A stretch of 64,000 bases of DNA from Candidatus Parcubacteria bacterium. Its GTDB lineage: Bacteria; Patescibacteriota; Saccharimonadia; UBA4664; JBIOIQ01. A program made the translations under genes and the position numbers. The DNA is taken from contig OY970378.1 in NCBI GenBank assembly GCA_963718875.1, forward strand, positions 947,691 to 1,011,690, in the 5' to 3' direction. Positions 1,360 through 3,882 of the stretch are shown here, piece after piece. Positions within the stretch are counted from its first letter, which is position 1. The number at the start of each line of letters is the position of its first letter. Under the pieces are notes generated by a model. That model made no database searches. It was given only the letters and a program-made list of their open reading frames with translations, and was not told the DNA's origin.

Positions 1360-3882
1360 TCAATGACCCCCTCGTTCCCACTTGGATTGCGAGGGAGCCT
1401 TGGTTTGGGAGTTTTGAATTAACTTATGCGCCAAGTCCCAAGTACGGTACGTAAAACGCCCTACGCCAGCTAAATGTTCCTCACTCCAGGCCATTTCTTG
1501 ATCATATGGTCCCATAAACATCTCGTACAATCGAAGTATATCTGCTCCATGCGTCGTGATTACGCCGTCTGGATTAATAACATTGCCGCGAGATTTGCTC
1601 ATCTTTTGATTGTCCGGCCCTAAAATCATGCCATGGCTTCGTCTCTTGGCATAAGGCTCGAGAGAGGGCACGAGTTTTTGATCATATAAAAATTTGTGCC
1701 AAAAGCGTGAATACAACAAATGAAGTGTCGTATGCTCCATTCCGCCGTTATAGAGATCAACCATCAACCAGTCTTGTAATTTGGACGTTGAAGCAAAAAC
1801 TTGATCATTGTTGGGGTCAATGTAGCGCAAATAGTACCAGCTAGAGCCAGCCCAGTTGGGCATGGTGTCTGTTTCTCGCTTAGCCGGACCATCACATTGA
1901 GGGCAAACCGTATTAACCCAATCGGTAATTGCCGCCAAGGGGCTTTCACCTGTTTTGGTGGGTTCATAATGTTCAACTTCAGGCAAAGTAAGAGGTAGTT
2001 GATCTTCCGGCACCGGCACGACTCCACACTTGGGACAATGAACCACCGGGATAGGTTCGCCCCAGTAATGCTGGCGACTAAAAATCCAATCGCGCAGTTT
2101 GTACTTGACTGCGTGTTTTGCGGACCCCGCTTTAAACAAATCTTCCACTATGGCTTGCTTTGCTTCGGATCCTAATAAACCGTCGTATTGGCCGGAATTA
2201 ATCAGTTCTCCTTCATCCGTAAGTGCGGTTTCTTTCCATAATTGCTGCCAGACAAATTTTTGGTGGTCAGGTACAAGCCTATCTAAAACTGCTTTTTGTT
2301 CGACCCAAACTAGAGTATGTTGCTTGGATTCGGCGTTGGGAATATTGCCTTGCTGGCTTAGATTGTCAACCTCGGCCATGATCACCATAGTAATGGCCTT
2401 GCGGTTTTGCTGCTTATGCGAGGCGCAGTAACGCGCTCCGGTAACCCAACGTAACTTGCGAACAATATTTATGTCCTGTAAGGCCGCTTCTTCGCGGATC
2501 TCATTTAAGGCGGCAGTTTCAGGTGTTTGCCCGTCTTCAATCCCTCCCATGATGGCAGTAGTTATGCCCTCAAGAGTACCGTGCCAATCAAGCAGGGCAA
2601 ATTTACCAGTGGACTTATCTTTAAGATGGACGATTACCGTGTCCCGAACGACTTCTTCGTACCTGGGTTGAGGTGGATTTTTGGTATCGTCCTCAATAGG
2701 CATGATTACCTGCTTAATTGGTAGGTCAAATTTTTTGGCAAACTCAAAGTCACGCTCATCGTGGGCAGGGACAGCCATAATGGCGCCCGTACCGTAACCC
2801 ATTAAAACGTAGTCGGCGATCCAAACTGGAAGTTCCTCTTTGGTAAGAGGGTTGATCGCCATTGCTCCGGTCCAGACGCCAGTTTTGGGCCGCTCCTGGT
2901 CTTGCCGCATTAACTCTGTCTCGGACTGGACGGTTTTGATATAGCTTTCAGTAACTGATTTTTGACCAGAGGTTGTGATGTCTTTTACTAGTGGATGTTC
3001 AGGCGCCAAGACTAAAAATGTAGCTCCGGCCAATGTGTCGGCACGAGTGGTGAAAACTTCAATATAAGAATTGTCATCCTGAACTCGATTCAGGATCTCT
3101 TGACTTAGTTTAAGAGATTCCGAATCCTGAGCGCTCGCATGGGCATGGTTCGTGCTCGCTTCCGGTCCGGAATGACAGATTGGAAATTTAACCGTCGCCC
3201 CCTCACTTCGACCGATCCAGTTAATTTGTTGCGTGGCCACACGAGGCAAGTAATCGACCGTTTTTAAGTCTTCAATCAGTCTATCAGCATAGGCTGTGAT
3301 TTTGAGTAACCATTGTTTGAGTAATTTTTTTTCGACTTCTGTGCCACAGCGCTCATGACGACCATTAATAACCTCTTCGTTGGCCAACCCAGTCTTACAA
3401 AATGGGCACCAATTAATGGCAATCTCGGCTTGGTAAGCAAGCCCGGCTTTAAGAAGTTGTAAAAAAATCCACTGGGTCCACTTGTAGTACTTAGGGTCAG
3501 TGGTATTAACCTCGCGCGACCAGTCGAAGCTTAGGCCCAAGCTTTTCATTTGGCGACGGAACGTGTCGACATTACGTTCGGTAGCGAGATGAGGGGCAAT
3601 CTTGTTTTTGATTGCATAGTTTTCTGTGGGCAATCCAAAAGCATCCCAGCCCATAGGATAGAGCACATTGAAACCTTGCATACGCTTGTGTCTGGCCATA
3701 ATATCCAGGGCAGTAAAGCTGCGGACATGTCCTACATGCAGCCCATCTCCCGAGGGATAAGGAAATTCTGCCAACAGGTAATATTTGGGCTTAGGATCAA
3801 AATCGACCGCTTGATAAAGCTTAGTGTCCGTCCAAACTTTTTGCCATTTGGGCTCAATTTTGCCTGGTTCGTATGGTTTCAT
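1360..3882 (-). CDS. leuS: Leucyl-tRNA synthetase main body (HVGH ... KMSKS) with an embedded Nudix/MutT-like domain and a repeat-derived insertion
   Basis: HVGHVRS and KMSKSRGN class-I motifs; CP1/editing region ([28 protein letters not shown]); Nudix box [23 protein letters not shown] at about aa 446-468. Confidence 0.9.
   Translation of the reverse strand: [840 protein letters not shown]
3066..3176. repeat. Family-B/D-like palindromic element inserted in-frame inside leuS
   Basis: ttgtcatcctgaa..ttcaggatc followed by agattccgaatcctgagcgctcgc...cgcttccggtccggaatgac; compare the intergenic B copies ggattccctatccggagcgc...ccgatagggaatgac. It encodes the low-complexity LeuRS segment [37 protein letters not shown]. 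Confidence 0.6.

Follow-up and report, generated by a model that had tools for sequence, protein, structure and literature searches.

A Nudix domain inside the editing domain of a Patescibacteria leucyl-tRNA synthetase, apparently exchanged as a cassette

Aminoacyl-tRNA synthetases (aaRSs) are among the most conserved enzymes, and insertions and appended domains, such as those of leucyl-tRNA synthetase (LeuRS) CP1 or of trans-editing, show that their peripheral loops tolerate added sequence. The CP1 insertions known from bacterial LeuRS are short peptides. The LeuRS described here is encoded on a 64,000-nucleotide stretch of DNA from a Candidatus Parcubacteria bacterium with a Saccharibacteria-like genome (contig OY970378.1, positions 947,691 to 1,011,690; the whole stretch is called the window below) and likewise carries added sequence in such a loop, in this case a complete Nudix domain. 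With the structurally characterized bacterial enzymes of Thermus thermophilus (Tth; PDB 1H3N and 2BYT) and Escherichia coli (4AQ7) it shares the class I core with the HIGH and KMSKS motifs, a CP1 domain with the Thr-rich and AHDxRD motifs and, in a separate frame in this assembly, an anticodon-binding domain. It differs from them by the 152-residue Nudix segment, by a disordered insert of 37 residues and by lacking the leucine-specific domain. The latter varies among bacteria and its absence is no bar to membership of the bacterial LeuRS group. Nudix domains are also known from fused proteins, for example NadM (NMN adenylyltransferase-ADP-ribose pyrophosphatase) and MutY, which has a C-terminal Nudix fold. 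These are end-to-end fusions, whereas the Nudix domain of the window sits in a loop of another domain and belongs to a family that is present in one to three copies and seems to be exchanged among lineages. No paper on a Nudix domain in LeuRS turned up in our full-text literature searches, nor any description of a complete unrelated enzyme domain in LeuRS CP1.

The LeuRS gene is divided between two open reading frames (ORFs; Table 1). The larger is a bacterial-type LeuRS (Pfam tRNA-synt_1, 3.4e-53; editing domain PF13603, 2e-61), and the smaller, displaced into a separate frame by an extra base at position 1381 (see below), holds the anticodon-binding and C-terminal part (PF08264, 5.8e-24). 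T. thermophilus LeuRS is the best solved relative (E 8e-188). The alignment of the two proteins is broken twice, with query residues 236-272 standing against Tth 237-241 and query residues 399-550 against ∼ Tth 367-374. Before the KMSKS motif (∼ 1591-1620) it jumps from query 756/760 to Tth 580/637, skipping Tth 581-636, which is where the leucine-specific domain is missing. The presence of the TTRADT motif suggests that the editing domain is intact. The segment at the second break, which we call site B, takes the place of ∼ 6-12 residues of the T. thermophilus enzyme in a loop of the CP1 editing domain. Between AHDxRD and RDW the window LeuRS has 217 residues, compared with 63-101 in ∼ 55 LeuRS without insert, which amounts to ∼ 145 extra residues. 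An initial annotation of this DNA had placed an insert of about 140 residues at 2247-2682, between CP1 and the catalytic core. The insert is real but slightly wider (2233-2688), and its location has to be revised: it lies within the CP1 editing domain, 21 residues past AHDERD, as judged from the T. thermophilus alignment and from the extent of CP1 in that enzyme (Tth 224-417).

The Nudix assignment itself was borne out by a profile search. The segment 2247-2682 (residues 401-545) matches PF00293 with 33.0 bits (E 7e-8; gathering score 21.1), and the whole ORF matches with 28.5 bits over residues 442-544. An AlphaFold2 model of the full-length protein, built with 120 homologues, has a mean predicted local distance difference test score (pLDDT) of 90.6 and a predicted template-modelling score of 0.82, with values of 95-98 (pLDDT) in the insert. 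The domain takes the form of an alpha/beta/alpha sandwich of ∼ 130 residues with a loop-helix-loop at the Nudix box. When modelled alone, it again gave the expected order of strands and helices (pLDDT 94.2). The insert is a genuine Nudix domain inside LeuRS, as had been proposed, and the models show it as an independently folding unit. Its base composition shows no GC anomaly and is continuous with the flanks, and a search for direct or inverted repeats at the insert boundaries returned only short matches at chance level.

Table 1. Features of the LeuRS gene and its inserts. Coordinates are those of the window; residue numbers are those of the LeuRS protein.
Feature	Residues	Position	Strand	Basis or remark
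Leucyl-tRNA synthetase gene		858..3882	minus	two ORFs in this assembly, 1360-3882 (840 aa) and 858-1358 (166 aa)
HIGH-type class I motif HVGH	49-52	3727..3738	minus	translation; H49 and G51 invariant (120 LeuRS)
Site A, polar insert of 37 residues (CHSGPEAST...QDDNS)	236-272	3067..3177	minus	entry of editing domain; pLDDT 53-62
Thr-rich editing motif TTRADT		3034..3051	minus	T278, T279, R280, D282 and T283 invariant (120 LeuRS)
AHDERD editing-site motif of CP1		2749..2766	minus	H374, D375, R377 and D378 invariant (120 LeuRS); 21 residues upstream of insert
Site B, inserted segment (152 residues)	399-550	2233..2688	minus	break in Tth LeuRS alignment at query 398/551
Nudix fold, alpha/beta/alpha sandwich	410-549	2236..2655	minus	
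Variant Nudix box	446-468	2479..2547	minus	G446-x5-Q452-x7-N460-E461-I-x-E464-E465-x-A467-L468
X-loop motif Y485-C-A-S-H489-K490		2413..2430	minus	Y485 lies 17 residues past box end (L468)
E518...W526, conserved downstream Glu and Trp		2305..2331	minus	kept across all insert types
KMSKS motif	760-764	1591..1605	minus	translation
Single extra base (G on coding strand)		1381..1381	minus	frameshifts LeuRS in linker before anticodon-binding domain

Relatives were collected with the full-length protein as query; the insert alone, run against a word-indexed protein database, returned three fragments only. The resulting set comprises the 120 LeuRS most similar to that of the window (54-72% identity, mostly 945-980 amino acids), and the sequences stem mostly from metagenome assemblies. 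PF00293 is found at the same LeuRS site in 112 of them. The insert is the majority state among these closest LeuRS and is widespread in Patescibacteria rather than peculiar to the window genome. At 50% identity, ∼ 100 Patescibacteria clusters carry a Nudix domain at this LeuRS site, and in all the architecture extends to hundreds of uncultured relatives. An exhaustive HMMER search with the window insert against 1.84 billion representative proteins gave 138 matches at E ≤ 1e-3. About 100 are LeuRS or LeuRS fragments, in most of which ∼ 28-30 residues separate AHDxRD from the domain. Another ∼ 30, free-standing and 150-200 amino acids long, show the same sequence signature (P0133, P0136, P0138, P0158 and others); none of the 138 was found in another synthetase. 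A pattern scan with one genome per species found full-length matches in metagenome-assembled genomes (MAGs) of Saccharibacteria, Patescibacteria, Parcubacteria/Paceibacterota, Taylorbacteria, Gracilibacteria and Magasanikbacteria. A few insert-bearing MAGs bear other taxon labels, which may be mis-assignments. In two cases (L013 and L014) the insert-bearing LeuRS is a single ORF only under genetic code 25 (UGA = Gly). This reading agrees with the taxon given for L013, Gracilibacteria (L014 bears only the label 'uncultured bacterium'), and extends the insert to a recoded lineage.

Database names for the homologues are limited to 'leucyl-tRNA synthetase' or 'class I tRNA ligase family protein', apart from one JGI entry named 'leucyl-tRNA synthetase/ADP-ribose pyrophosphatase YjhB (NUDIX family)', where the second part is a generic COG1051 label. 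Precomputed Pfam matches already flag the Nudix domain in LeuRS. The architecture is thus public in automatic annotations but undescribed in the literature that we found.

The Nudix box consensus is GX5EX7REUXEEXGU (PMC5389931), and the window box reads G446-G-I-E-D-G-Q452-T-P-E-T-A-A-L-N460-E461-I-R-E464-E465-A-A467-L468. Six of the nine consensus positions match; the first E is replaced by Q, R by N and the last G by A, so the box is not the 'textbook' example it was first taken for. In the 112 inserts G446, E461, E464 and E465 are conserved without exception, as is W526, followed by K490 and E518 (99% each) and W433 (95%). The metal-binding glutamates of the ExxEE core and the downstream acidic residue E518 are kept although insert types share only ∼ 20-30% identity. 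The E518...W526 pattern resembles, in our own motif comparison, E98...W104 of E. coli MutT. Three box positions are not fixed. At 452, E (55 inserts) and Q (54) are about equally common; at 460, R occurs in 57 inserts and the remainder vary; at 467, G (67) outnumbers A (39). Two box classes of equal size result, a canonical E/R/G class (54 of 112, or 56 if two conservative E/K and D/R variants are counted) and a class with Q, a residue other than R, and A, G or S (54 of 112), to which the window belongs.

The insert of the window is of the commonest type, termed type 0. Its 54 copies share ∼ 45 positions that are at least 96% conserved, among them Q452, Y485, H489, K490, N493 and R494 as well as E518, H522, W526, H540, Q541 and K542, and the former Arg position alone varies freely (A, M, T, N or S). 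Y485 is conserved in 81% of all inserts and in every type-0 copy. The box class of the window is not decaying, and the overall pattern indicates a putative functional metal-binding site, possibly with altered specificity. The metal-binding glutamates are under strict purifying selection, which makes a catalytic role plausible, as the initial annotation had supposed.

How alike two inserts are says little about how alike the LeuRS around them are. In 106 single-insert LeuRS, pairwise identities of core and insert are nearly uncorrelated (r = 0.10). Pairs with cores at least 90% identical have inserts that are 33-100% identical, and where cores are 80-86% identical the inserts can be just 20-25% identical; conversely, some pairs with cores of 45-60% identity share inserts of ∼ 70% identity. 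Clustering of the inserts at 45% identity gave 16 types. One single-linkage core cluster (≥ 80% identity) contains eight of them, and types 1 and 2 are each spread over several core clusters. In block-wise comparisons identity falls from 60-99% to 0-30% exactly between '...KF(D/N)LP(I/V)' and 'GEGxL(I/V)NSG...'. Eight LeuRS cleanly lack the insert; they are up to 92% core-identical to insert-bearing LeuRS and fall into at least four separate groups. In these comparisons the insert behaves as an accessory cassette, and the simplest reading is that it has been replaced and lost repeatedly by recombination. Homologous exchange probably takes place in the strongly conserved LeuRS sequence on either side of it.

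Related LeuRS carry further enzymes, and at two sites. Two tandem Nudix domains are found at site B in P0025 and P0056, and L010 has a second copy slightly further on. The other break in the alignment, site A, where T. thermophilus LeuRS has five residues, holds one or two extra Nudix copies in some relatives, upstream of the T-rich motif, with up to three Nudix domains per LeuRS (P0127, P0128, P0215). Site A is occupied by an ASCH domain (residues 245-349) in P0022 and P0036, and by an alpha/beta-hydrolase (residues 242-410) in P0014, P0037 and P0043. The polar peptide at site A of the window may be a remnant or a linker. In a Doudnabacteria MAG (L071; JBBRWU010000001.1), site B contains a class I S-adenosylmethionine-dependent methyltransferase (Pfam Methyltransf_23/11, TehB-like) instead of the Nudix domain. 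A complete second enzyme in the proofreading domain of a bacterial LeuRS is outside the textbook picture, and exchange of such cassettes between near-identical backbones is even more so; what is new and unexpected in the finding is the behaviour as a cassette, together with the use of two sites by several enzymes. The pattern of inserts is also a natural map of permissive LeuRS insertion sites, useful for protein engineering, and the insert is a variable marker in a universal gene with which recombination among uncultured Patescibacteria could be tracked. Separately, the LeuRS of one Patescibacteria MAG (L011) has ∼ 85 extra residues past the Nudix domain (...TKTPEKSEAFVGSEDCYPQHKVRYC...) in which no likeness was recognised.

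Comparison with known Nudix families assigns no subfamily to the insert. Its best PDB profile matches are the AvrM14 decapping effectors, 2AZW and lupin Ap4A (diadenosine tetraphosphate) hydrolase, and the best Foldseek template-modelling scores were obtained with E. coli RppH (including the Ap4A complex) and the Aquifex Ap4A hydrolase. RppH models are the NCBIfam families matched by most insert members, far below cut-off: the window domain scores 17.7 bits against the RppH equivalog, whose cut-offs are 116-118, and the best member reaches E 3.9e-10. The MutT equivalog models did not match the window domain and gave weak matches to 10-14 of 32 members (best 9.7e-7). A viral fold library returned generic Nudix matches only and no specific phage relative. 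Identity of the window domain to members of the polyphosphate hydrolase/RppH/decapping branch (E. coli RppH, Aquifex aq_158, the lupin and Caenorhabditis elegans Ap4A hydrolases, Mycobacterium tuberculosis Rv2985, T. thermophilus Ndx1 and AvrM14) is 13-20%. Unlike in that branch, three consensus residues (the first Glu, the Arg and the Gly) are missing from the window box, and the domain is embedded in another enzyme rather than free-standing. The Enterococcus faecalis MutT/Nudix protein (2AZW; 14-17% identity) is an uncharacterised structural-genomics protein and gives no functional information. A Tyr in the X-loop ∼ 17 residues past the box is a marker of hydrolases of diadenosine polyphosphates (ApnA), which goes back to Dunn 1999 and is summarised in PMC5389931, and Y485 occupies this position, although the marker is weak when taken alone. 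We lean towards the ApnA hydrolases, RppH and the decapping enzymes as the nearest relatives, the sequence resemblance being weak.

We propose that the LeuRS-embedded Nudix domain is a working metal-dependent pyrophosphohydrolase that acts on ApnN-type molecules or RNA ends and is exchanged as a cassette, and we give this reading a probability of roughly 50%. Tethered to LeuRS and dependent on a divalent metal, the domain would most likely act on adenine-containing dinucleoside polyphosphates (Ap4A/ApnN); related Np4-capped or pyrophosphorylated RNA ends are further candidate substrates. Ap4A and other ApnN would arise from the aminoacyl-adenylate in a side reaction of the synthetase, and their hydrolysis to ATP and AMP beside LeuRS would recycle scarce nucleotides and prevent the build-up of alarmones or caps. 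aaRSs are a major source of Ap4A in cells; RppH, among other Nudix enzymes, hydrolyses it and takes off Np4 caps (PMC10148737). Ap4A is the best available guess because the nearest families are polyphosphate hydrolases, RppH and decapping enzymes and because Y485 stands at the position of the ApnA marker. Hydrolysis of mis-activated aminoacyl-adenylates, which had been suggested as an alternative to Ap4A, is not supported by Nudix chemistry, since these compounds are acyl-phosphate anhydrides and not pyrophosphates. If the domain does hydrolyse Ap4A-type by-products or modified RNA ends, tRNA charging would be physically and directly coupled to alarmone or cap metabolism, in minimal-genome organisms that rely on scavenged nucleotides.

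Several points weigh against a pyrophosphohydrolase of this kind. Mutation of the first Glu or the Arg of the box lowers activity in some Nudix enzymes, and type 0, which lacks both, may be slow, may use another substrate or may only bind its ligand. To our knowledge, LeuRS has not been described as a strong producer of Ap4A. A housekeeping role in clean-up does not obviously explain the turnover and repeated loss of the cassette. Finally, the 120 homologues were picked by their similarity to the window, which can distort correlations such as that between core and insert; the pairwise block profiles are unaffected. The turnover of the cassette and the presence of other enzymes at the same sites keep two alternatives alive.

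The first, which we consider unlikely, is that a housekeeping Nudix enzyme with a task unconnected to leucylation, such as nucleotide-pool sanitation or ADP-ribose or NADH turnover, simply hitch-hikes in a permissive loop, the host gene being essential and well expressed in organisms with tiny genomes. Free-standing homologues of the same Nudix subfamily do exist, the insert can be lost precisely with LeuRS otherwise unchanged, and the one automatic name at JGI is a generic label. The finding of methyltransferase, ASCH and alpha/beta-hydrolase domains in the same loops also suggests permissive sites rather than a LeuRS-specific function. However, ∼ 100 of the 138 representative matches are in LeuRS and none in another synthetase. 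Up to three Nudix copies in one LeuRS, and an association that holds across several Patescibacteria classes, point the same way; this persistence argues for a LeuRS-linked benefit.

More doubtful still is a role in the repair and protection of tRNA ends or aminoacyl-tRNA, in which the cassettes hung on CP1 would act on tRNA-Leu or on LeuRS-bound ligands. They might, for instance, remove a 3'-pyrophosphate or nucleotide adduct added by a toxin to the CCA end, or destroy inhibitors that mimic the adenylate, and an arms race would account for their diversity. Both sites of insertion belong to CP1, whose editing domain binds the tRNA 3' end, and four enzyme classes (Nudix, ASCH, alpha/beta-hydrolase and methyltransferase) occur there in relatives. 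Accessory genes driven by conflict typically show what is seen here: swapping, tandem copies (as many as three Nudix domains in one LeuRS) and repeated loss. The nearest characterized Nudix proteins include enzymes of RNA ends, namely RppH, AvrM14 and oomycete decapping effectors. Against this, the viral fold search returned nothing beyond the generic Nudix matches, and across distant backbones type 0 changes no faster than the LeuRS core, a pace that suits a stable function better than an arms race. A broader version of the same idea, which we regard as a long shot, would make the CP1 domain of Patescibacteria LeuRS a platform on which interchangeable enzymes dock: no fewer than 16 types of Nudix domain, present singly or in up to three copies, along with ASCH, alpha/beta-hydrolase and methyltransferase domains, all shuffled by recombination under diversifying selection. 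Embedded in translation, these cassettes would protect or repair tRNA-Leu ends, or LeuRS itself, when the cell is exposed, through its host or community, to toxins, phage effectors or nucleotide-analogue antibiotics.

We find it quite improbable that type 0 is a non-catalytic module, for instance one that senses nucleotides, binds RNA or protein, or braces CP1 structurally. The loss of three of nine box consensus positions and the free variation of the Arg position within type 0 would fit such a module, and a LeuRS that lacks the leucine-specific domain could be compensated by an added binding module. Non-enzymatic members of the Nudix clan are documented and provide a precedent (PMC5389931). 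Retention of G446, E461, E464, E465 and E518 (the last in 99%) across 112 inserts, 54 of them type 0, is nevertheless hard to explain without metal binding, and in about half of the relatives the box is fully canonical.

An artefact of assembly has also to be considered, since the LeuRS gene of the window is broken. The 840-amino-acid product is present unchanged in NCBI and ENA, on a contig of 1.19 Mb. Its 90% cluster has a second member, P0261 (1007 amino acids), whose gene lies on L081, an ENA contig from an independent assembly. L081 is 99.4% identical across window positions 183-4626 and shows zero differences within the insert (2233-2688), which is in frame. At 1381 a blastn alignment of the window with L081 reads TCCAA-TGGG against TCCAAGTGGG, and deletion of base 1381 yields a 1007-residue ORF identical to P0261. 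Either an assembly error or a very recent mutation is the probable origin of the extra base. The idea that a chimera or mis-join placed a Nudix gene fragment inside LeuRS can draw on this indel, which shows that the window assembly has at least one error or change that breaks the gene, but it is refuted by the identical in-frame insert in the independent contig and by more than 100 homologues from NCBI, JGI, ENA and Logan with the insert at the same site, besides the continuous GC content and the confident AlphaFold2 model of the fusion. Two other accounts of the truncation were rejected. Read-through under an alternative genetic code (UGA = Gly) gives sequence unlike LeuRS, and the frameshift accounts for the truncation; a frameshift in the G5 run at 1367-1371 is excluded because L081 places the extra base at 1381.

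The free-standing Nudix gene that the initial annotation had reported at 32445-32858 (minus strand, 137 amino acids) is present and has a canonical box (PF00293, 8.8e-16). It is only distantly related to the insert, scoring 20 bits against the insert profile, and was rejected as its donor or paralogue on that ground. The gene lies 68 nt downstream of a short AlaRS gene (32927-34906, 659 amino acids) whose product ends at the tRNA_SAD domain. Just upstream of LeuRS is a GC-rich island (∼ 3900-5850, 55-62% GC compared with 43-50% in the flanks) with only short plus-strand ORFs (4108-4440, 4630-4878 and 5038-5568), none of which has a Pfam match; two short ORFs of the island share a 'W..NL.WL' motif. 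In this region the window differs from L081 by 1-nt indels at 4388 and 4359 and by a 6-nt indel at 3916-3921. Two tRNA-Ala genes, with anticodons GGC and CGC, lie 2.2 kb apart on the minus strand (12307-12382 and 14510-14585).

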